Positions 16,312-27,013 of a stretch of 52,189 nucleotides of DNA are shown here, in pieces. Location of the stretch: NCBI GenBank assembly GCA_017609985.1, contig JAFCCW010000003.1, positions 1-52,189 of the forward strand, given 5' to 3'. The stretch's first letter is position 1. Every line of letters starts with the position of its first letter. Below the pieces are notes generated by a model. The model saw only the letters and a list, made by a program, of their open reading frames with translations, was not told the DNA's origin and made no database searches. The position numbers were made by a program, and so were the translations under genes. Origin of the DNA: Candidatus Iainarchaeum sp. GTDB taxonomy: Archaea > Iainarchaeota > Iainarchaeia > Iainarchaeales > JAFCCW01.

Positions 16312-17391
16312 TTATTCCATATTCTCTTTTCTAACAGACTGTGCCTGCAATGCATCAGCCAGAACAAGAGCAACCATTGATTCAGCGACTGGGACAATGC
16401 GTGGACAGATGCATGGATCATGTCTTCCCTCTGTTTTTATTTTACTGGGTCTTCCAGACTCATCAACTGTTTTTTGTTCAATAGAAATTGAAGCAGTTGG
16501 CTTAACTGCAATCCTTAGAACAATGTCTTGCCCTGTTGAAATTCCGCCAAGGACCCCGCCTGAGTTGTTTGAAGCAAATTTTGCCTTGCCTGACTTCATT
16601 GAAATAATTTCATCATCCATCTGTTTTCCATTCAATTTCGCAGAAGAAAAACCAGAACCGATTTCAACCCCCTTGACTGCTCCAATCCCCATCAAAGCCT
16701 TTGCGAGCTCAGCATCAAGTTTTCCAAAAACAGGTTCTCCAAGACCAGGGGGAGTTCCAGAAACAACTATTTCCACTATTCCTCCAAGAGAATTTCCCTC
16801 AGACTTTGCTTTAAGAATTGCTTTCTCAATCTTTTTTGCAATGCTACTGTCGGGACAGCGAACAGGATTCTTTTCAATCTCGCTGAAATCTATTTTAGTG
16901 CACTCTGTTCCTGCAACACTCTTGACATAAGCAGTTATTTTTATTTTTTCTTTTTTCAAAATCTTTTTCGCAACTGCTCCTGCTGCAACCCGCCCAATTG
17001 TTTCACGACCTGAAGAACGGCCTCCTCCACGATAGTCTCTTAACCCAAACTTTTTCCAGTAAGTGAAGTCAGCATGGCCTGGTCTAAACAAGTTCTTTAT
17101 TTTTTCATAGTCAGAAGGGTGAGCAGAAGTATTGCGAATCAAAACGCATATTGGAGTTCCAGTTGTTTTCCCTTCAAACACGCCTGAAAGAATTTCTGCA
17201 ACATCTCCTTCTTTTCGGGAAGTGGAAATATTTGACTGCCCTGGTTTTCTCTTATCCAATTCTTTTTGAATATCTTTTTCAGAAATTTTTAATCCAGATT
17301 TCACGCCGTCAATTACCACTCCAATAGCAGAACCATGGCTTTCTCCAAAAGTTGTTATTTTGAACGACTCTCCAAAAATATTTCCACTCAT
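16312..17391 (-). CDS. aroC: Chorismate synthase
   Basis: TFGESHG, RPGHAD, RSSGRET, GRHDPC. Confidence 0.97.
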   Translation of the reverse strand: MSGNIFGESFKITTFGESHGSAIGVVIDGVKSGLKISEKDIQKELDKRKPGQSNISTSRKEGDVAEILSGVFEGKTTGTPICVLIRNTSAHPSDYEKIKNLFRPGHADFTYWKKFGLRDYRGGGRSSGRETIGRVAAGAVAKKILKKEKIKITAYVKSVAGTECTKIDFSEIEKNPVRCPDSSIAKKIEKAILKAKSEGNSLGGIVEIVVSGTPPGLGEPVFGKLDAELAKALMGIGAVKGVEIGSGFSSAKLNGKQMDDEIISMKSGKAKFASNNSGGVLGGISTGQDIVLRIAVKPTASISIEQKTVDESGRPSKIKTEGRHDPCICPRIVPVAESMVALVLADALQAQSVRKENME

Positions 17392-18248
17392 TCAGAAAAC
17401 CTCTCTTTCAGAACAGCCTGTCTCATTTCTTCTTCAGGTGCCTGTAACCCGGTGAAAATTTCAAACATTTCAAAAGCTTGTCCCAAAAACATTTCAACAC
17501 CTGAAACCGTGATGCATGCTTTTTCCTTAGCCTCTGCAAGAAGACGTGTGTGCATTGGAGTATGAACTGCGTCAAAGACCACCTTGCTCCTGCTTAAAGA
17601 CTCTGCAGGAAATGGTGTGTTAGCTGAGTCTTGCCCCATTCCAACAGAGGTTGCGTTCACAAGAATATCATATTCTGTGAAAAGCCTTTCAGCCCAATTA
17701 ACCTGTTTCGCTCCAAGCTCTTTGGCAAAATATTTTGCTTTTTCATTCGTTCTGTTGGAAACAATAATTCTTGCAGACTCCTGCTTTAAGCCAAAAGCAA
17801 TAGCTCTTGCAGCACCGCCTGAACCAAGGAGAAGCGCTTTTTTTCCGGAAACAGGTGTTGCGTTTTTTAGAGCACGCATTGCTCCGCCAACATCAGTATT
17901 GTGACCAGAAAGCAAGCCATCAGAATTAACAATGCAATTGACTGCACCAACCTGTTCAGCAACAGAGTCAAGAGAATCAAGAAAAGGAATTACTTTCTCC
18001 TTGAGAGGCATTGTAACAGAGTAGCCAGAGATGGAAAGAGCCTTCATTGCATTTATTGCTCTGCCAGCTTCCTCTGTTTCAAATGCAAGAAAAACTGAGT
18101 TCAGCTTTTTGGCAGCAAATCCTGCGTTCTGAGCAAGCGGAGAAAGAGAATGCTCTACTGGAGAACCAATTATTGCGTAAAGACTTGTTTTTGCATTAAT
18201 CTTGTTTGTGTTACCCTGATTTTCAGCAATCCTGTTTTCTGCAGTCAT
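17388..18248 (-). CDS. aroE: Shikimate dehydrogenase
   Basis: HSLSP, SVTMPLK, GAVN, NTD, LGSGGAARA. Confidence 0.96.
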   Translation of the reverse strand: MTAENRIAENQGNTNKINAKTSLYAIIGSPVEHSLSPLAQNAGFAAKKLNSVFLAFETEEAGRAINAMKALSISGYSVTMPLKEKVIPFLDSLDSVAEQVGAVNCIVNSDGLLSGHNTDVGGAMRALKNATPVSGKKALLLGSGGAARAIAFGLKQESARIIVSNRTNEKAKYFAKELGAKQVNWAERLFTEYDILVNATSVGMGQDSANTPFPAESLSRSKVVFDAVHTPMHTRLLAEAKEKACITVSGVEMFLGQAFEMFEIFTGLQAPEEEMRQAVLKERFSE

Positions 18249-18937
18249 TTCTTCACCAAACCAAACTTTTTCAAGTCCTCAACAGTAATCTGTCCAGGAG
18301 CAGAATTCTTTTTTTCAGACAAAGAACCAAAAAAAGCAAAGCCCCCGTAAGCAGGCGCTAGAATTCTGCTTGCTTTTCCCAAATCACCCATGCAAAAAGA
18401 AATAAGATTTAATTTTTTTGCAGCCGCCATTTGAGAAAGCATTAGAGTACGGGCATTATCCTCAAAGTCTCTGGCAAAAGTTACAATCTTAAAAGCAAAT
18501 GCTTTCGGCCTTTGCTGTTGCATTCTGTCAAAAAGATTTGACAAATGAGAAAGCAACGGAGTGTCTTCAAAATCATGGTGTGAAAGAATAACTCTTGCCC
18601 CAAGGCCGGCGAGATAGTCACGCAGGTCAGCATGCATTGAAAGTTCCAAATCAACATACTTTGCCCCGGCCTGAATCGCATCCTCAAGCAATGCTGACTT
18701 TTCAATTTCAGTTCCCCTGAACTCCCCTCCCTCTCCCTTAAACCTGCAAGTAGCAATAACCGGCTTTTTTGATTTCTTAACCAATGCCTTGATGTTTCCA
18801 GAAGAAGGATTGTTAAGACAGTCAAGTCTTAGTTCAATCAAATCAGCCAGCTTGTTTGCTTTTGAAATATCTTTCAAAGCAGAAGCAGGAGTTTTTGCAG
18901 TGATGGGAATAATAAGTTTAGATTTTTTCAAAACCAT
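18245..18937 (-). CDS. aroD: Type I 3-dehydroquinate dehydratase
   Basis: ELRLD, ATCRxxxEGG, SHHDF, Schiff-base Lys (FKIV), MG...SR, APGQ. Confidence 0.93.
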   Translation of the reverse strand: MVLKKSKLIIPITAKTPASALKDISKANKLADLIELRLDCLNNPSSGNIKALVKKSKKPVIATCRFKGEGGEFRGTEIEKSALLEDAIQAGAKYVDLELSMHADLRDYLAGLGARVILSHHDFEDTPLLSHLSNLFDRMQQQRPKAFAFKIVTFARDFEDNARTLMLSQMAAAKKLNLISFCMGDLGKASRILAPAYGGFAFFGSLSEKKNSAPGQITVEDLKKFGLVKK

Positions 18938-19466
18938 TCGCCTCCATTATCTTGATTACTTTTCCTGCAACCTCTTCAACTGAAAGAGAATCTGTTTCGA
19001 TTTCGAAATCAGACAATCGTTCATATGATTCTGCACGCGATGAAAGTACGCGCTCAATTTCATTCACAAGACCGTCTCCAGTTAAGCCAGGTCTTTGCTG
19101 TTTGTTCTTCTGCAAATCAAGCAAGAGACGCTGCTTTATTGTTTCAGGAGATGCCTTGAGCAATATAACCAGTCCGCTGTTTTTAATCTTTTCTGCATTG
19201 GATTGAGAAAGAATTGCTCCGCCTCCAAGAGCAACAAGTTTTCCGTTGCCTGAACAGGATTCTGTTACAGCATTTGATTCAATTTTTCTAAAACCCTGCT
19301 CTCCTTGTTCTTTAAAGATTTCAGAAATTGTTTTTTCAGCTTTTTTTTCTACAAGCTCATCAGTGTCAACAAAAATTAGGTTAGTTTGTTCTGCGACAAT
19401 CCTGCCAACAGATGTTTTTCCACACGTTCGATAACCAGTCAAAAAAATATTCCTTTGTCTGTTCAT
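18918..19466 (-). CDS. aroK: Shikimate kinase (bacterial P-loop AroK/AroL type)
   Basis: GYRTCGKTSVG Walker A, DTD, GEQGFR, LGGG, RP motif. Confidence 0.95.
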   Translation of the reverse strand: MNRQRNIFLTGYRTCGKTSVGRIVAEQTNLIFVDTDELVEKKAEKTISEIFKEQGEQGFRKIESNAVTESCSGNGKLVALGGGAILSQSNAEKIKNSGLVILLKASPETIKQRLLLDLQKNKQQRPGLTGDGLVNEIERVLSSRAESYERLSDFEIETDSLSVEEVAGKVIKIMEANGFEKI

Positions 19467-20743
19467 TTCTCTTCACCCCCAAGCTTGTTGAAAGATTCAA
19501 AGAAACCAGGAAAAGACTTTTTAACACAGGAAGGATTAGAAATTCTAGTGCCTGAAACTGCAAGACCCGCAACAGAAAAAGCCATTGCAATGCGATGGTC
19601 ATTGTATGTTTCAATCAAAGCAGGTTTTGGATTTCCACCCCTGACTTTTATGAAATCTTCTCCGAACTCTGCTTGAATTCCCATTTTTCTAAGTTCAAAA
19701 ACAGGAGCTTCAAGTCTGTTGGATTCCTTAAACTTTAAGTGAGAAATATTTCTGAAAACAGATGTTCCGGAAGCAAAAGCCGCAACAACAGCAGCAGTCG
19801 GAACAATATCAGGGCAGGAAGACAGGTCAACCTCAACAGCTGAAAGTTTTTTTCCTGCTTCAATTTTCACAGCATTGTCTTCAAAAACTGTTTTGCAGCC
19901 CATGTCTGAAAGAATTTCAAGAAATATTTTGTCTCCCTGAACAGATTCAGGGTTAAGATTTTTCACAGAAAGTTTTCCCCCAGTGACAGCAGCCGCTGCA
20001 AAGAAATAACCAGCACTTGAATAGTCGCCCTCAATAGAATAGTTTCTTGAAGAATAGTTCTGTCCTGCTTGAACAAAGAAATTTTTATAATCCTGATTTT
20101 CTGCCTTAACTCCAAAAGACTTCATTGAATCAATGGTTAGGTCAATATAGGGCTTTGACAAGAGACTGGCCGAGCACTCAAGCGAAACATCTTTTTCTGC
20201 ATAGGGTGCAGAAAGAAGAATCGATGAAAAAAACTGGCTGCTTTCATCACCTGAAAGAAAAGCATGTCCTCCGGAAAAAGAAGGTCCACAAATTGAATAG
20301 GGTGGAAAGCCCTGATTCGAGCTTGAAACAACTCCTAACTGCTCAAGTGCTGAAAGAAGCTTTCCAATCGGTCTGGAGTACATTCTTTCGTCGCCTGAAA
20401 CACTTGTTTTTCCCTGTGCAAGAGCAGCAAAAGAAGCAAGAAAGCGGGCAGTGACTCCAGAGTTTCCAACAAATATTTCTCCAGACGGAGCAGTCAATTT
20501 TCCAGAACATCCTGAAACTGAAACAAAATTTTGCTCAGGAGATACAGACACAGGAATATCAAATGCTTTTAGAGCATTGATTGCATGAACCTGGTCTTGA
20601 GCAATAAGAGGATTTGCAAGTCTTGATTCATTGTCTGCAAGAGCTGAAATAAACAAGGCACGCAAGGTAAATGCTTTCGATGGCGGAGCTGAAACAACAG
20701 CATCAAGCTCTTTGACTGGATTGATTTCAATGAAATTTGACAT
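19463..20743 (-). CDS. aroA: EPSP synthase
   Basis: PPSK, GNSGVTARF, SSQF, KESNR, DHRIAM. Confidence 0.97.
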   Translation of the reverse strand: MSNFIEINPVKELDAVVSAPPSKAFTLRALFISALADNESRLANPLIAQDQVHAINALKAFDIPVSVSPEQNFVSVSGCSGKLTAPSGEIFVGNSGVTARFLASFAALAQGKTSVSGDERMYSRPIGKLLSALEQLGVVSSSNQGFPPYSICGPSFSGGHAFLSGDESSQFFSSILLSAPYAEKDVSLECSASLLSKPYIDLTIDSMKSFGVKAENQDYKNFFVQAGQNYSSRNYSIEGDYSSAGYFFAAAAVTGGKLSVKNLNPESVQGDKIFLEILSDMGCKTVFEDNAVKIEAGKKLSAVEVDLSSCPDIVPTAAVVAAFASGTSVFRNISHLKFKESNRLEAPVFELRKMGIQAEFGEDFIKVRGGNPKPALIETYNDHRIAMAFSVAGLAVSGTRISNPSCVKKSFPGFFESFNKLGGEEK

Positions 20744-21846
20744 TAAAACACCTGCAAAGCAGACAATATTTCTTTTTCAGAAACAATTGATGAATTGGAA
20801 AGAGATTCAGGAGAGTATTTTCCAATTTTTTCAGGAAAAACAATTTTGATGTTTCCGCCTGTTGATTTCTTGTCTGACTTCATCGATTCCACAAGACTGG
20901 TGCGAGAAATCTTTGGAAGCTTTAATGAGAAATCAAGAGATTTTAGAAGAGAATTCTGCAAATTCAAATCCGCTTCTGAAAAAAAACCTTTTTCAACAGC
21001 AATTCTTCCCTCCACCGCCATCCCAATAGCAACAGCTTCACCATGCGAGACTTTGGAATAACCAGTAAGAGATTCAATTGCGTGACCAACAGTGTGCCCA
21101 TAGTTTAGAAGAACTCTGTTGCTATTTTCAAACTCGTCTTTCTCAACTAATGCTGATTTGATTATGCAGTTTTTTTCAACAAGCTCTGAAAAAATATTCG
21201 CGTCAAAAAGATTGAATTGAGAAGAATTATTTCTAATCATTGAAAAAAGAGAAGAGTCAAACATTACTGCGTGCTTTACTGATTCTGCAAGCCCGTTTTT
21301 GATTTCGCTATAAGGTAATGTTTTTAGATAAGAAACATCTGCAAAAACTGCTTTTGGCTGAAGAAAAGAACCTGCAAGATTTTTTCCCTGCTTGAAATCA
21401 ACTCCTGTCTTTCCTCCAACGCTTGAATCAACCATTGCAAGAAGGCTTGTTGGAACCTGCACAACAGAAATTCCGCGCATGAAAACAGAGGCAGCAAATC
21501 CCGCAAGATCTCCAGTGACCCCTCCTCCAAAAGCCACAACACAGCTTTTTCTATCAAGCTTGTGTGAAAGCATTTGTTCAAGAACAGACTCAAGAGTAGC
21601 AAGTGTTTTACTGGATTCGCCGGCAGGAAAAGAAATCAGGCTCGTGTTGATTTCTTCTTTTTCAAATTCATTTGCCAGGGATTCAGCTGAAGAAACAAGA
21701 TTTGAATCAGTAATTATTGCAAGACTGCTTGGATTAACCTGAGACACAAAAGAAGCTATTTCGCACGAAATACTTTCTCCGATAGATATCGTGTACGAGC
21801 TGTCAAGCTCTTGTTTCAGGGAAACCTGTATTTTTGTGTTTTTCAT
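20743..21846 (-). CDS. aroB: 3-dehydroquinate synthase (bacterial type)
   Basis: GGGVTGDLAGF, PTSLLAMVDSSVGGKTG, LNYGHTVGHAIE, HGEAV. Confidence 0.97.
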   Translation of the reverse strand: MKNTKIQVSLKQELDSSYTISIGESISCEIASFVSQVNPSSLAIITDSNLVSSAESLANEFEKEEINTSLISFPAGESSKTLATLESVLEQMLSHKLDRKSCVVAFGGGVTGDLAGFAASVFMRGISVVQVPTSLLAMVDSSVGGKTGVDFKQGKNLAGSFLQPKAVFADVSYLKTLPYSEIKNGLAESVKHAVMFDSSLFSMIRNNSSQFNLFDANIFSELVEKNCIIKSALVEKDEFENSNRVLLNYGHTVGHAIESLTGYSKVSHGEAVAIGMAVEGRIAVEKGFFSEADLNLQNSLLKSLDFSLKLPKISRTSLVESMKSDKKSTGGNIKIVFPEKIGKYSPESLSNSSIVSEKEILSALQVF

Positions 21847-21852
21847 AAGCGT

Positions 21853-22866
21853 TCAAAGAGTTCTTCCAACTGACTCGGCAACAGCTCGCATTTCCTTCAT
21901 CAGCTTGGAGAATTCTGGGGGCGTAAGCTGCTGAGGCCCGTCGCACAAAGCCTTTTCTGGACAGTTGTGAACCTCTATTAGCAAGCCGTCTGCTCCAGCA
22001 GCAATTGCAGCCTTTGAAATAGGAGCAATAAGACTTTTCTTGCCCATTGAATGGCTTGGGTCAGCAATGACTGGAAGATGAGTCTCTTGTTTGATTAAGG
22101 GAATTATTCCAATGTTAAGAGGAAATCTTATCTCTGGTTCAAAGGTTCTGATTCCCCGATTGCAAAGAATTACCTGAGAATTTCCCTCACTCAGGATATA
22201 CTCTGTAGCCATCAAAAACTCTTTCTTGGTTGAAGAGATTCCGTTTTTCAGAATAATCGGCTTGTTAATTTTTCCAACCTCTTTTAACAAGTTAAAATTC
22301 TGCATATTTCTTGCTCCAATGCGAACAATGTCAACGTATTTGGCAACAGTTTCAACATTGCGAATATCCATAACCTCTGTTTCAACAACAAGACCTGTTT
22401 CCTCTTTTGCTTTCGCAAGCAATTTCAAACCCTCTTCACCCATTCCCTGAAAATCATAGGGAGAAGTGCGGGGCTTGTAAGCAGAGCCTCTTAGAATTTT
22501 GACTCCTGCCTTTTTTACCTCGTGAGCAACAGTCATTAACTGTTCCTCTGATTCAATTGCACAAGGTCCAGCAATAATCTGGATTTCCTTGCCCCCGATT
22601 TTTACTCCATCAACATCGATAACAGTGTCAGCCGGATGAAATTCTCGCGAAGCAAGCTTATAAGGTTTTAGAACAGGCATTACTTTGTCAACAAAGGGAA
22701 GAGCCTTAAGCTGGTCTTGTGAAAGTTTTCTTTCATCACCAATTGCTCCAACAATTGTTACCTCGGTTCCCTCAGACACATGAGCTTTTAGACCACGCTC
22801 TTCAAGATAAGAGGAAAGAGCCTGAAGATCCTGCTTTGTTGAATTCTTTTTTAGAACAATAATCAT
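21853..22866 (-). CDS. aroF: DAHP synthase class I-beta with N-terminal ACT-like regulatory domain
   Basis: AGPCAIES, KPRTSPY, IGARNMQN, DPSH; Thermotoga-type N-terminal extension. Confidence 0.95.
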   Translation of the reverse strand: MIIVLKKNSTKQDLQALSSYLEERGLKAHVSEGTEVTIVGAIGDERKLSQDQLKALPFVDKVMPVLKPYKLASREFHPADTVIDVDGVKIGGKEIQIIAGPCAIESEEQLMTVAHEVKKAGVKILRGSAYKPRTSPYDFQGMGEEGLKLLAKAKEETGLVVETEVMDIRNVETVAKYVDIVRIGARNMQNFNLLKEVGKINKPIILKNGISSTKKEFLMATEYILSEGNSQVILCNRGIRTFEPEIRFPLNIGIIPLIKQETHLPVIADPSHSMGKKSLIAPISKAAIAAGADGLLIEVHNCPEKALCDGPQQLTPPEFSKLMKEMRAVAESVGRTL

Positions 22867-23813
22867 TTTTGCACATCCTTTTCAGCCAAGGCACTCTTTG
22901 CTGCACTGGCAATAGCAGTTGCAGTCAAACCATATTTTTCAAAAAGCTGTTCTGGAGGAGCGCTCTCTCCAAATCTGTCCCTGACTCCAACACGCTTTAC
23001 TGAAGAAGGTTTTTTTTCTGAGAGAAGTTCGCAGACTGCTCCGCCAAGACCTCCTACAATGCTATGATCTTCAGCAGTTACAATAGCTCCTGTTTCAGAA
23101 GCAGCTTTCAAGACAATGTCTTCATCAAGCGGTTTAATTGTAGCCATATTTATTATGCGTGCATTAATTCCCTCTTTTTTCAAAAGAGTGGATGCTTCCA
23201 TAGCTTTTGAAAGCATAATGCCTGTTGCAATAATGGAAACATCTGCCCCGTCTTCAACAACACTTCCTTTTCCAAACTCAAAAGAATACTTGTCGCCAAA
23301 AATAACAGGAGTCTTTAGCCTGCAGAGCCTTATGTAAAGTGGATTTTCAAGTTCAAGTGATTTCAAAACAAGACTTTTTGTTTCTACACCATCAGCCGGG
23401 CAGGCAACAATCATTCCTGGAAGAGTTCGCATCAAAGCAATATCCTCCAAAGCCTGATGGCTTGCTCCGTCTTCCCCTGTTGCAAGTCCTGCATGACTTC
23501 CAGCAAGCTTTACAGGAAGCATTGAATAAGCAATACTGTTTCTTATCTGGTCAAAAGTTCTTCCAACTGCAAAAACAGCAAAAGTGCTTGCAAAAACCTT
23601 CTTCCCAGATGCAGCAAGACCTGCAGCAGTGCCAATCATGTCCTGCTCAGCAATTCCAATATTGAAAAACCTGTCAGGAAATTTTTTCTGAAAACTAACT
23701 GACTTAGTTGACTTGCTCAAATCAGCATCCAGAACAACTACATCATTATCTTTTTCTCCAGCTAAAGCAAGTGCTTCACCATAAGCTTCCCTTGTTGCAA
23801 TCTCTTCAGTCAT
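22863..23813 (-). CDS. Transketolase, C-terminal subunit
   Basis: DADL, GIAEQ, GEDGASHQ, TIKPLD, AEDH. Confidence 0.95.
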   Translation of the reverse strand: MTEEIATREAYGEALALAGEKDNDVVVLDADLSKSTKSVSFQKKFPDRFFNIGIAEQDMIGTAAGLAASGKKVFASTFAVFAVGRTFDQIRNSIAYSMLPVKLAGSHAGLATGEDGASHQALEDIALMRTLPGMIVACPADGVETKSLVLKSLELENPLYIRLCRLKTPVIFGDKYSFEFGKGSVVEDGADVSIIATGIMLSKAMEASTLLKKEGINARIINMATIKPLDEDIVLKAASETGAIVTAEDHSIVGGLGGAVCELLSEKKPSSVKRVGVRDRFGESAPPEQLFEKYGLTATAIASAAKSALAEKDVQK

Positions 23814-23817
23814 GCTC

Positions 23818-24669
23818 TCACCTCTCCTCGCCTGTTTCAATATTACAGACTAAATCAAGCTCTCCAATAGCTTTCTGGAGCTCTTCGCTTGTGAGTGTCT
23901 TTCCATGATAGTCACAGACGTTCTCAATGAATGAAACACCCTTGCATTTTGTTGTTTTTGCAACAATTACTGTTGGCTTGTCAGTGCATTCCTTTGCCTT
24001 TGCAAAAGCGCTGATGATTTCTTCAAAATCGTGACCGTCAATTTCAATCGAATTCCACCCAAAAGCAGAGAACTTGTCTGCAATCGGTTCAACTCCCATT
24101 ACATCTTCCACAAAGCCATCAATTTGAAGCCTGTTAAAGTCAACGATTGCTAAAAGATTATCAAGCTTGTAATGAGCTGAAGTCATTGCGGCTTCCCAAA
24201 CCTGTCCCTCTTGCAGTTCCCCGTCGCCAAGAAGGCAGTAAATCCTTGAATCAGATTTATCAAGCTTTGAAGCAAGAGCCATTCCGTTTGCAACGCTTAA
24301 ACCCTGTCCAAGAGAACCAGTGCTTATTTCTATGCCAGGAGTCTTTGTTGAAGAAGGATGACCTTGAAGCATTGAGTTAAGTGTCCTAAGCTTTCCAAGT
24401 TCCTCTTTTGGAAAATATCCAAGGTCAGCAAGCACTGCGTAAAGAAGCGGACAAGCATGTCCCTTGCTTAACACAAATTTATCCCTGCCGCCCCACAAAG
24501 GATTGTCAGGCTTGTGCTTCATCTCACGATAGTATAGGGCAACAACAATGTCTGTTGCAGATAGGCTCCCTCCAGGATGACCTGAACCAGCGCAGGTGGT
24601 CATCTTCAAAATTTCTTTTCTCATTTCAGCTGACTTTACACTCAGTTGTTCTGCTCCAAGCTTTTCCAT
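23818..24669 (-). CDS. Transketolase, N-terminal subunit
   Basis: GHPGGSLS, SKGH, TGSLGQG, GDGE...N ThDP motif. Confidence 0.95.
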   Translation of the reverse strand: MEKLGAEQLSVKSAEMRKEILKMTTCAGSGHPGGSLSATDIVVALYYREMKHKPDNPLWGGRDKFVLSKGHACPLLYAVLADLGYFPKEELGKLRTLNSMLQGHPSSTKTPGIEISTGSLGQGLSVANGMALASKLDKSDSRIYCLLGDGELQEGQVWEAAMTSAHYKLDNLLAIVDFNRLQIDGFVEDVMGVEPIADKFSAFGWNSIEIDGHDFEEIISAFAKAKECTDKPTVIVAKTTKCKGVSFIENVCDYHGKTLTSEELQKAIGELDLVCNIETGEER

Positions 24670-24670
24670 A

Positions 24671-25738
24671 TCAATCACCGTTCAACTCCCTCGGATAGCT
24701 TCCAAGTATTTTCAGGAAAGCAGTCCTCTTTTTCAGTTCATCCATCGCCTTCTTTACTTCTTCATCTTCAACATGCCCTGTAAAGTCAATGAAGAAAACA
24801 TACTCCCATTGCTTTTGCTTTGTAGGACGTGACTCAATTTTTGTCATGTTAAGATTGTTTTTGTTAATTGGTTCAAGGCTGTCAAACAGAGCGCCTGATT
24901 TGTGCGGCACGCTGTAAACAATTGAAGTTTTGCTGCGCTTTGCTTTTGGTGGAGCTTTCTTTCCAATAACCAAAAAGCGAGTAGTGTTGTGAGGGCTGTC
25001 TTCAATTGCTGGCGCAAGAATATTCAGTTTGAATTTTTCAGCAGCAAGCTCTGAAGCTATTGCAGCAGAGCTATGATAAAGCTGAGCAAGTTCAGCAGCC
25101 TTTGCAGTGCTGCTTGCTTCAATAAGCTCTGCTTTTGGAAGATTCTTGCTAAGCCATTCCCTGCACTGAGCAAGCGCCTGCGGATTGCTGTAAACACGTT
25201 TTATTTCTGAAAGCTTGTATTTTGAAATCAGGTTGTGGTTGATTTCAAGAGAAATCTCTGCCACAATCTGCAAGTCACTGTAGAGAAACATGTCCACAGT
25301 ATGAGTCACTGTTCCCTCAGTACTGTTTTCAATTGGAACAACCCCATAATCTGCCTGGTCTTTCTCCACAGCCTTAAATACATCTGAAATAGAATTCATT
25401 GCAACCAATTCTGACGAAGACCCAAATTTTTTAAGAGCAGCCATGTTAGTAAAGGTTGCCTCAGGACCAAGAAAAGAAATTTTCAGAGGCTGTTCAAGTT
25501 CACGCGAAGCAGACATTATCTCAGTGTAGACAGCCCGCAAGTGCTTTTTTGGAAACTTAACAGATTTTTTTGAAAGCTCTTCGATTATTTCCTGTTCTCT
25601 GACAGGATCATAAACAGGGCTGTTGCTTTTTTTCTTTTGCTCTGCGACCTCAAGGATAAGCTCGCTCCTCTCTTCAAGTGCAGAGAGAAGCTTTTCATCC
25701 ACTTCGTCTATTTTTTTTCTTAAGTCCTTGAGTTCCAT
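24671..25738 (-). CDS. pheA: Chorismate mutase/prephenate dehydratase (P-protein)
   Basis: LRKKIDEVD chorismate mutase domain, LGPEATF, PIENS, NTTRF, ACT domain ESRP, LGSYP; probable ATG at 25738. Confidence 0.96.
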   Translation of the reverse strand: MELKDLRKKIDEVDEKLLSALEERSELILEVAEQKKKSNSPVYDPVREQEIIEELSKKSVKFPKKHLRAVYTEIMSASRELEQPLKISFLGPEATFTNMAALKKFGSSSELVAMNSISDVFKAVEKDQADYGVVPIENSTEGTVTHTVDMFLYSDLQIVAEISLEINHNLISKYKLSEIKRVYSNPQALAQCREWLSKNLPKAELIEASSTAKAAELAQLYHSSAAIASELAAEKFKLNILAPAIEDSPHNTTRFLVIGKKAPPKAKRSKTSIVYSVPHKSGALFDSLEPINKNNLNMTKIESRPTKQKQWEYVFFIDFTGHVEDEEVKKAMDELKKRTAFLKILGSYPRELNGD

Positions 25739-25799
25739 TTCATCACTTCCTTTGCCAACAGCCTTTCTCAGACACGGGCTTGGAGTGAGAAAAAGCAAG

Positions 25800-26444
25800 C
25801 TATTTGCTTACCTTCTCCCAGTCCTTCAAAAATTTTTCAATTCCTTCATCAGTCTTTGGGTGCTTAATTAATTTTTCCAGAATTTCAGGAGGAATTGTTG
25901 CAACATGAGCTCCAAGCAAAGCAGCATCAGTCACATGACGTGGGTGTCGAATGCTTGCAACGATTATTTCTGTGTCAAACTCGTAATTGTCTATTATGTC
26001 AGCCAACTCGCTGATTAATTCCATTCCATCCTGTCCAATGTCATCAAGTCTTCCCACAAACGGGCTAATGTATGATGCGCCAGCTTTTGCGCAAAGCAGT
26101 CCCTGGTTTGCAGAAAAGACAAGAGTTGCATTTGTCTTGATTCCCTTCTTCTTCAAAGCACTGATTACCTTCAATCCCTCTGCATCACAGGGAACCTTTA
26201 TTACAATGTTCTTGTGCATTGCAGAATACTCTTCTGCCTGCTTTATCATTTCCTCTGAATTCGTTGCTGTGACCTCTACACTGATTGGACCATCAACTAT
26301 TTCGCATATTTTCTTGACAGCATCCAGAAACGAAAGAGATTGCTTGCTCATAAGGCTTGGATTGGTTGTGACTCCGTCAACAACTCCCCAGGAAGCATAT
26401 TTTTCTATTTCTTTTACGTCAGCTGTATCTATAAAAAACTTCAT
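25800..26444 (-). CDS. tal: Transaldolase (TalC/Fsa family)
   Basis: [31 protein letters not shown]; Phe at SPF and co-location with transketolase favour transaldolase. Confidence 0.9.
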
Positions 26445-26512
26445 TGAACCTCACCCCAACATACAGTGTATTTAAGTTTTTTTAAAACCATAACTAAAAC
26501 CATCACGTTCCA

Positions 26513-26546
26513 GGCCAGCGCAATCCCAACAAGGAGATGCCTGACC
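26513..26546 (-). promoter_or_regulatory. GC-rich RNA hairpin right after the Phe-rich leader stop (putative attenuator element)
   Basis: mRNA GGUCAG-GCA-UCUC-CUUGUU-GGGA-U-UGC-G-CUGGCC; its 5' arm can instead pair with UGCCUGGUU in the leader. Confidence 0.65.
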
Positions 26547-26547
26547 A

Positions 26548-26640
26548 TCAATAGAAGAAAAAGAAATTAAAAAACCAGGCAGCTGCCTCTGAGAAAAAAG
26601 AATTGAATAACTCTGTTTTAGGCAAACTGTTTGTTTTCAT
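26548..26640 (-). CDS. Aromatic amino-acid operon leader peptide (pheL-like), MKTNSLPKTELFNSFFSEAAAWFFNFFFFY
   Basis: 30 codons with 9 Phe, 1 Trp and 1 Tyr, concentrated just before the stop; 103 nt upstream of the tal-pheA-aro operon on the same strand. Confidence 0.85.
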   Translation of the reverse strand: MKTNSLPKTELFNSFFSEAAAWFFNFFFFY

Positions 26641-26659
26641 AAAAAAAAAACATGCTAAA

Positions 26660-26678
26660 ATGTTTAAAAAGCTTGTTA
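26660..26678 (-). promoter_or_regulatory. Putative BRE/TATA promoter for the aromatic leader and operon
   Basis: Minus strand AACAAGCTTTTTAAAC with the TATA-like core about 23-30 nt upstream of the leader ATG, consistent with a leaderless archaeal transcript. Confidence 0.55.
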
Positions 26679-26680
26679 TT

Positions 26681-27013
26681 TCACTTTAGGCTTGTGCCCC
26701 CAATCTGAGCAACTTTCTTTCCTTCCAAAGTCTCAAACATTTCATTGACTGCGTGATTAAGTGAATGAAAATCGCTCGCATTGTTTAAGAAACAAGATTC
26801 AAGCTTATAATCAGCTGCTCGTTCACTTATTCGTGTTCTCTCAAAAAAAGAAACAACTCCTTTTGGATCAAGATTACTCTCTTTTTCTTTTTTTTGCAAT
26901 TCAGCTACTCGTTCTTTTATTCTTGTTCTCTGAAAAAAAGAGTCAACCTCTCTTGCATCAATACGAGCGCGAATTCCCTTTGGAACAAATAGTTTAGAAA
27001 ACCTTCGAGGCAT
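26681..27013 (-). pseudogene. Probably truncated paralogue of the neighbouring orphan methyltransferase
   Basis: Ends MFETLEGKKVAQIGGTSLK*, stopping within SAM motif I (neighbour: MLETMGSLRAKKIAHIGSAAG); internal repeat VDSFFQRTRIKER/VVSFFERTRISER. Confidence 0.5.

Follow-up and report, generated by a model that had tools for sequence, protein, structure and literature searches.

The DNA analyzed here, which we call the window, is a stretch of 52,189 nucleotides from Candidatus Iainarchaeum sp. (assembly GCA_017609985.1, contig JAFCCW010000003.1, positions 1 to 52,189), and on its reverse strand, where all window features given below lie, an operon for aromatic amino acid synthesis is preceded by a short open reading frame (ORF) with Phe, Tyr, and Trp codons clustered at its end. 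An earlier note on this DNA had described the ORF as a leader peptide analogous to that of E. coli pheL, and every element that it named was found where the note had placed it. The leader ORF (26548..26640) runs from the ATG at 26640 to the TGA at 26548, comprises 30 sense codons, and was recovered with the same translation from the window sequence and its list of ORFs. Its aromatic tail, codons 22-30 (26551..26577), is the presumed ribosome stall site and reads W F F N F F F F Y; translation confirms that eight of the nine final residues are aromatic with Phe, Tyr, and Trp all present, and a codon count that TTT and TTC are both used. The RNA of this tail also contains a U6 tract and a U5 tract. 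A Pfam search of the ORF product gave no match, and no Shine-Dalgarno sequence was found ahead of the ORF, in contrast to tal, the first gene of the operon, which has a Shine-Dalgarno-like GGGGTGAGG (26449..26457) 4 nt ahead of its start codon (26444). As with leaders of the pheL type, the short aromatic-codon ORF thus stands just before its operon, separated from the first gene by an untranslated spacer of 103 nt.

The operon (16312..26444) contains 11 genes, for all of which the Pfam matches are above curated cut-offs. In order, they encode transaldolase (tal), a chorismate mutase-prephenate dehydratase-ACT protein (pheA), the N and C halves of transketolase (a split gene), DAHP synthase, DHQ synthase, EPSP synthase, shikimate kinase, DHQ dehydratase, shikimate dehydrogenase, and chorismate synthase. 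Because neighboring genes overlap or are separated by gaps of just 0-30 nt, the 11 genes probably form one transcript. The assignment of the leader to a common-pathway operon therefore holds, with tal, pheA, transketolase, and a complete shikimate pathway behind it. PDH_N (tyrA) was not found in the genome, which at 86.6% completeness is no proof of absence.

The genome containing the window (G000; 1.16 Mb in 37 contigs, 86.6% complete) encodes two TBP domains, and a profile search of this incomplete assembly found no Sigma70_r2. The host is an archaeon, since TBP is present and sigma-70 region 2 was not found. The phylum is represented by 215 species in our genome library, 196 of them in the order of the window, and their small genomes suggest to us a DPANN-like lineage. 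Two Beta-CASP nucleases are also encoded, in open frames of 630 and 427 codons, the expected sizes.

The Leader ORF in Related Genomes

Related loci were scanned with a fixed rule, which asked for an ATG-initiated ORF of 12-70 codons with at least six aromatic residues in its last 10, on the same strand as an anchor gene and no more than 300 nt from it; the TATA box, the hairpin, and the number of Trp codons, all described below, played no part in this selection. Where tal is followed by pheA, a leader was found at 8 of 10 loci, and where tal has no pheA behind it, at none of 37. Full-length pheA not adjoining tal gave 13 leaders in 20 loci, and PDT-only pheA none in nine. In four of the seven misses among the 20, archaeal-type aroA' and aroB' genes (named from N-terminal sequences), which occur in these relatives, precede pheA, and a leader lies before aroA' in all four; of the other three, one runs off its contig and two (G042 and G141) have no leader. 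Two genomes were added, in one of which the leader passes the rule (G135, before pheA), while that of the other (G024) reaches only 5 aromatic residues in 10. Altogether, 27 of 32 aromatic-operon starts in the order carry a leader, in nine families and in 26 genomes besides that of the window, and the first gene after it may be tal, pheA, or aroA'. The counts by class of locus therefore indicate that the element is tied to where the aromatic operon starts, irrespective of its first gene, and not to transaldolase itself.

Over 1.65 Mb scanned on both strands, the rule gives 36 matches, among them the leaders. A metagenome scan with PheA returned 54 loci, of which 14 with only a chorismate mutase domain were excluded (L191-L197, L199-L201, and L203-L206); among the 40 from other lineages that were scanned as a negative control, the single match is identical to a leader of this order. 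Tal as a query over genome contigs gave mostly bacterial matches, being too conserved, and was not used.

The tails of the 27 leaders are strongly biased toward all three aromatic residues. Their last 12 codons, 324 in all, include 119 for Phe, 63 for Tyr, and 24 for Trp, each enriched about sevenfold over the proteome (5.0%, 2.9%, and 0.9%, respectively), and 24 of the 27 tails contain exactly one TGG, a codon that belongs to no T-run. Within the alignable groups, variant codons at aromatic columns kept an aromatic residue in 25 cases and lost it in 7, where the code table predicts that about 2 in 9 random single-base changes to an aromatic codon would leave it aromatic; the variants include two-base exchanges among TGG, TTT, and TAT. 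The earlier note had named a lack of in-frame conservation of the Phe codons as grounds for abandoning its reading, and alignment of the related leaders shows that the aromatic codons are kept. A further 900-nt contig agrees with this. It comes from metagenome run X1 (labeled as hydrothermal vent) and is ∼95% identical to window positions 25814-26601, with 41 differences and one gap, so that a close relative is present in another data set. In the part of the ORF that this contig covers, one change is synonymous (TTC to TTT) and another (AAT to GAT, Asn to Asp) falls on the sole non-aromatic codon; the differences in tal are mostly at every third base.

In so AT-rich a genome, aromatic-rich frames are uncommon but by no means exceptional. 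A span of nine residues with eight aromatic ones occurs in 37 of 60,873 stop-to-stop frames of G000. Among 980 intergenic ATG-initiated ORFs of 12-60 codons, however, seven or more aromatic residues in the last 12 are seen in just two, the window leader alone also having a TATA-like box at the right distance. The second of these ORFs (C27:26146-26199, reverse strand) consists of T-runs behind a thermosome gene and has neither a TATA box nor aromatic genes downstream; it is a plain terminator, an instance of how T-rich archaeal terminators can mimic poly-Phe ORFs. A look for other leader-type ORFs of this genome biased toward a single residue gave nothing convincing. One small ORF (C23:47705-47764, reverse strand), with a TATA-like box and a six-residue stretch that includes four Cys, lies between the TBP gene and what by eye resembles a 5S rRNA gene, and is unlinked to cysteine metabolism.

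Ahead of the window leader lies a TATA-like box, TTTTTAAA (26663..26670), with TATA-like hexamers beginning 29 and 28 nt before the ATG. Because of this distance, transcription should begin at the ATG or within a few nucleotides of it, giving a leaderless mRNA. Of the 27 leaders, 26 have a TATA-like hexamer 24-36 nt ahead of the ATG, compared with 38 of 517 other ATGs in the same loci (7.4%), and the one leader without it sits at a contig end. The geometry agrees with that of the genome as a whole, in which TATA-like hexamers form a sharp peak at -26 to -33 before the first ATG of 522 long ORFs (111 matches in these eight positions, against 4-12 per four positions closer to the ATG). This peak is the signature of leaderless mRNAs and suggests that a large share of the mRNAs of G000 are of this kind. 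Between the TATA box and the ATG, a T10 run (26641..26650) is visible by eye; it is peculiar to this genome, being absent from the other leaders, and probably ends the transcripts of an upstream ORF of 110 codons (26681-27013). That ORF, just upstream of the leader promoter, has by eye an internal repeat of ∼40 residues and no significant Pfam match, the best (DUF5630, E 0.0098) being under the cut-off.

Several of the related loci have features of their own. Four operons that start with aroA' and aroB' (L207-L210, in G101, G056, G113, and G114) have these genes in place of transaldolase and DAHP synthase and keep the leader; in their spacers, 108-227 nt long and very rich in A, modules of A-run, U-run, and GGAGG recur, and their hairpin loops contain runs of T5-T9. 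In family f23 (for example, G129 C5, G130 C66, G134 C111, G135 C52, and G136 C17), trpE lies 4-8 kb past pheA on the same contig and strand, and the aromatic leader may thus head a super-operon that includes trp genes, which fits the single Trp codon in the tails. At f27 tal loci without pheA (L008, L017, L033, L036, L037, and L040-L042), a TATA box is followed by a T-rich 5' untranslated region of ∼55 nt, alike by eye in several genera and with no ORF inside.

The Hairpin and Its Distance from the Last Aromatic Codon

The earlier note had placed a 34-nt hairpin at 26513..26546, and it is indeed present, beginning 1 nt past the stop codon and folding at -16.6 kcal/mol, a value equaled by 3 of 100 dinucleotide shuffles. 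The window leader as a whole (206 nt) folds no better than its shuffles (z -0.35). A hairpin is found at this place in all 27 leaders, starting 0-4 nt past the stop codon with energies of -6.3 to -21.4 kcal/mol. All 27 z-scores against dinucleotide shuffles are negative (mean -1.30), and 11 of the hairpins are matched by no more than 5% of their shuffles. Pairing of the 5' arms is much stronger with the cognate 3' arms than with those of other groups (z -2.57), and in one six-member group compensatory changes are seen at 6 of 10 pairs. The X1 contig differs from the window hairpin at four positions, all of them in the bulge, the loop, or one loop-closing U.G pair, and the main stem is unchanged. 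An ordinary terminator was rejected as an explanation, as a comparable hairpin is seen at just 9% of 150 ordinary gene ends in G000. In the f20 group, a possible pseudoknot between the hairpin loop and a downstream purine stretch was noticed by eye.

Measured from the first base of the last aromatic codon, the first paired base lies 6-11 nt downstream, at 9 nt in 15 of the 27 leaders and at 7 nt in the window. The gap after the stop codon is larger in leaders that end on an aromatic codon than in those with one extra codon, so that it is the distance from the last sensor codon that is conserved. In a bacterial ribosome with the last aromatic codon in its A site, a stem 9 nt away would be located at the mRNA channel entrance. 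By analogy, a ribosome stalled there would abut the hairpin without opening it, and one advancing to the stop codon would open a few base pairs.

Beyond the hairpin (26546-26513) come 13 nt with no U-run and then two U4 tracts (26499-26496 and 26487-26484) followed by an A7 run (26483-26477), so that the hairpin is not that of a pheL-type intrinsic terminator. This U4/A7 stretch (26477..26499), between the hairpin and tal, is a candidate archaeal termination signal; U4 tracts are described, in excerpts of PMC8716108, as archaeal terminator elements bound by aCPSF1. What all of the leaders have in common is a U-rich tail, a hairpin abutting it, and a long, purine- and A-rich untranslated spacer (42-227 nt over the 27), and in 17 of the 27 a run of at least four A begins no more than 16 nt past the hairpin, compared with 22% of 1,289 background windows.

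A Proposed Mechanism and Its Rivals

What the sequences show is the ORF with its aromatic codons conserved in frame, its association with the start of the operon, the geometry of its promoter, and a hairpin conserved at a fixed spacing, and from these observations we infer translation, stalling, and the direction of the response. Taken together, they make it likely that the element is a ribosome-mediated attenuator of an archaeal aromatic amino acid operon. The sensor half of this proposal is well supported by the sequences, and would consist of a leaderless ORF with Phe, Tyr, and Trp codons that slow the ribosome whenever their charged tRNAs run low. From the archaeal promoter (TATA at 26670-26663), transcription of a leaderless mRNA would begin at the ATG of the 30-codon ORF, and ribosomes would load at its 5' end and translate toward the aromatic tail. 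With charged aromatic tRNAs scarce, the ribosome would stall on the tail and, with the last aromatic codon in its A site, would end flush against the hairpin past the stop codon, a state predicted to raise the expression of the 11 downstream genes. With the tRNAs charged, it would reach the stop codon, invade the base of the hairpin, and be released, and expression would stay low.

For the output, our tentative preference is for a model in which the parked ribosome and the hairpin would protect the U-rich tail, along with the nascent RNA, from U-tract-dependent termination, assisted by aCPSF1/FttA, in the spacer. Shielded in this way, RNA polymerase could reach tal; a released ribosome would leave the RNA bare. 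That FttA/aCPSF1 monitors the coupling of transcription to translation is put forward as a hypothesis in excerpts of PMC11616081. An output at the level of translation would give the right sign just as one at the level of termination would, and both stand as proposals.

A number of results weigh against the proposal and have to be set beside it. A look for RNA runs that contain the region gave none, and the start site, the translation, and any short transcript are predictions from sequence; all of the genomes are metagenome bins, and the 27 leaders amount to about 10 sequence groups in the nine families, not to 27 independent cases. Four related operon starts (G015, G016, G042, and G141) have no leader, and one start could not be judged. 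The share of TTT among Phe codons is 71% in the tails and 72% in the genome; we see no extra selection for U-tracts, and the idea of an added selection for TTT over TTC was rejected. As to termination signals, 8 of the 27 leaders have no run of four or more U in the hairpin or within 45 nt past it, and such tracts are similarly common at ordinary gene ends in G000.

No model of the output passed a test in silico, and four ideas based on folding failed across the family. Across 21 leaders, the ribosome-binding site of tal or pheA has a mean unpaired probability of 0.43 in the free RNA and 0.49 with the ribosome stalled, so that a systematic unmasking of the site is not predicted, equilibrium folding of so A/U-rich an RNA being a weak test. 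For 36 downstream U-tracts, the mean exposure is 0.40 in the free RNA, 0.36 with the ribosome stalled, and 0.34 with it at the stop codon; there is no systematic change, and masking or unmasking of these tracts by an A-run that switches partners was rejected. Among the tail, the arms, the spacer, and the ribosome-binding region, only the pairing within the hairpin itself proved specific to cognate partners. For the 3' arm of the hairpin in particular, neither the spacer nor the ribosome-binding region is a conserved partner, cognate combinations being no better than non-cognate ones in the 27 leaders.

The main rival, and the next most likely reading after the termination output, keeps the same sensor and gives it a purely translational output, in which the tail would pair with the purine- and A-rich spacer around the hairpin and lower ribosome loading on the first gene until a stalled ribosome frees the region. 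We regard it as rather unlikely. Minimum-energy folds pair the tail with the purine-rich flanks of the hairpin in seven leaders (L003, L004, L005, L147, L148, L150, and L151), the duplex of tail and spacer has a mean energy of -14.1 kcal/mol, and the excess of A-runs near the hairpin (17 of 27 leaders against a background of 22%) speaks for it too, as does the precedent of leaderless polycysteine ORFs in bacteria, known to us from excerpts of bioRxiv 10.1101/834739 and taken up below. Stalling is predicted to unmask the site in a few leaders, raising its unpaired probability from 0.27 to 0.58-0.72 in L005, from 0.21 to about 0.5 in L012, from 0.31 to 0.6 in L147, and from 0.38 to 0.53 in the window. 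Yet over the 21 leaders the effect is not systematic (0.43 versus 0.49, as above), and pairing of the tail with the ribosome-binding region is not cognate-specific (z +0.31). Moreover, the spacers reach 227 nt, so that the partner of the tail is often far from the start codon, and the window leader itself has no A-run beside its hairpin.

It is very improbable that the product is a functional small aromatic-rich peptide, whether associated with the membrane or acting as an arrest peptide that senses free amino acids, with a role beyond codon-dependent stalling. The ORF is kept in frame in 27 genomes and its N-terminal part is similar within groups, as a peptide would require, but what different groups share is confined to the tail composition and the location ahead of the operon, Phe, Tyr, and Trp interchange freely, and the product has no Pfam match. 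The spacing to an RNA hairpin is fixed as well, and this points to a role in cis. The weakest explanation, a chance ORF in a U-rich promoter or terminator whose T-runs merely end the upstream transcript and sense nothing, can draw on the poly-Phe reading of the C27 terminator behind the thermosome gene (26146-26199), on the 191 of 60,873 frames that hold a 7-of-9 aromatic window, and on the T10 run directly ahead of the ATG, but it can practically be dismissed, because the TATA box precedes the ORF, which accordingly lies within the operon transcript instead of where the upstream transcript ends, because TGG and TAY, codons that do not form T-runs, persist in frame, and because the element tracks the operon start whichever gene is first, with none at the 37 tal loci that lack pheA.

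Comparison with Known Attenuators

Attenuation by a leader peptide is a textbook case of coupled transcription and translation, established for bacteria only. The element shares with the leaders of pheL-pheA and of the trp, his, leu, and thr operons a short ORF before a biosynthetic operon, a cluster of codons for the product of the pathway at its end, and a stable hairpin near the stop codon, and the logic is likely the same, the position of the ribosome reporting on tRNA charging. It differs in belonging to an archaeon, in being apparently leaderless instead of led by a Shine-Dalgarno sequence, and in mixing codons for all three aromatic amino acids, with one Trp codon in 24 of 27 tails. It differs also in that just one hairpin is conserved, alternative pairings are not, and a terminator formed by a hairpin and a U-run is lacking. 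At the gathering score, the window and 20 related loci have no match in Rfam, only chance-level matches with E up to 10.

The alternative pairing deserves separate mention, as the earlier note had built its mechanism on it. The proposed 9-bp duplex between the Ala-Trp-Phe codons and the 5' arm of the hairpin does exist in the window, with three G.U pairs and an RNAduplex energy of -15.3 kcal/mol that only 2 of 200 shuffles reach. It is not conserved: over the 27 leaders, the end of the ORF pairs with its cognate 5' arm no better than with non-cognate ones (mean z -0.06). Nor do these leaders display the mutually exclusive pairings of an attenuator of this kind, whether between tail and 5' arm, 3' arm and spacer, or 3' arm and ribosome-binding region. 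A pheL-like alternative pairing was therefore rejected as the general mechanism, real as it is in the window. The analogy with E. coli pheL does not extend to the mechanism, given the archaeal host, the apparently leaderless ORF, the lack of a U-run directly past the hairpin, the absence of conserved alternative pairing and of an Rfam match, and the rarity of hairpins at gene ends (9% of 150). What survives of the earlier interpretation is thus the sensor, and what does not is its mechanism and the domain of life in which it had been placed. We conclude that the element probably works like a leader-peptide attenuator and stands outside the bacterial pheL family.

A second comparison is with tnaC and Rho-dependent attenuation in E. 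coli, where TnaC senses free tryptophan through its nascent peptide at the stop codon. As in that system, a ribosome halted where the leader ORF ends could keep a termination factor off the nascent RNA of a long untranslated spacer, which is the output we favor here, with aCPSF1/FttA in place of Rho and the factor-dependent step as a proposal only. Codon-dependent stalling is a likelier signal for this element than a nascent peptide of the TnaC kind.

The nearest described design is the leaderless polycysteine attenuator of mycobacteria. In excerpts of the report on it (bioRxiv 10.1101/834739), the short ORFs are leaderless first cistrons with a run of Cys codons as the sensor, a stalled ribosome alters the mRNA structure and relieves the sequestration of a ribosome-binding site, and several loci respond through the same tRNA. 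Like those ORFs, the element would be a leaderless first-cistron ORF with a run of sensor codons, its start being predicted here from promoter geometry. Unlike them, it has spacers of 42-227 nt and a conserved hairpin about 9 nt past the last sensor codon; and whereas relief of the binding site was shown in those bacteria, it is not consistently predicted here.

In full-text literature, the coverage of which leaves out most subscription journals, we found no description of an amino acid-sensing leader peptide in Archaea. Excerpts of PMC2965389, PMC8116511, PMC6393860, and PMC10219788 describe no archaeal amino acid leader peptide, and those of PMC10219788 state in general terms that upstream ORFs act in archaea too. 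We are cautiously inclined to see in these leaders the first archaeal family of ribosome-mediated amino acid attenuators, one with a leaderless sensor, a single hairpin ∼9 nt past the last sensor codon, and no terminator or antiterminator, which may act by shielding the nascent RNA from a CPSF73-like termination factor.

A second leader-like element is found before the trp operon of the same order (loci L225-L244), in the host genome at C8:5780-5964, upstream of trpE (5965). Here a TATA box lies about 25-33 nt ahead of an apparently leaderless, ATG-initiated mini-ORF of 9-17 codons, in which a single Trp codon occurs and the core GAT TYA CTT TGG hardly varies. The mini-ORF was detected by rule at 13 of 19 related loci and by eye in G000, where an 18-nt stretch of the element is repeated 60 nt downstream. 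At 12 of the 19 loci, a tRNA-Trp(CCA) gene lies between the mini-ORF and trpE on the same strand, and two more such genes appear by eye to bear an intron. The occurrence of this mini-ORF in the same order implies that translation-coupled sensing may be a general strategy of these small-genome archaea.

If the proposed attenuator is real, Archaea would use the position of the ribosome as a metabolic sensor, and such a sensor could rest on a leaderless mRNA and a single hairpin. Archaeal termination, or polarity, would then be open to regulation from within the transcript, and the element, at ∼200 nt, would offer a natural test-bed for the crosstalk among the archaeal ribosome, RNA polymerase, and FttA/aCPSF1. 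It also provides an annotation rule for the regulation of operons in uncultivated small-genome archaea.

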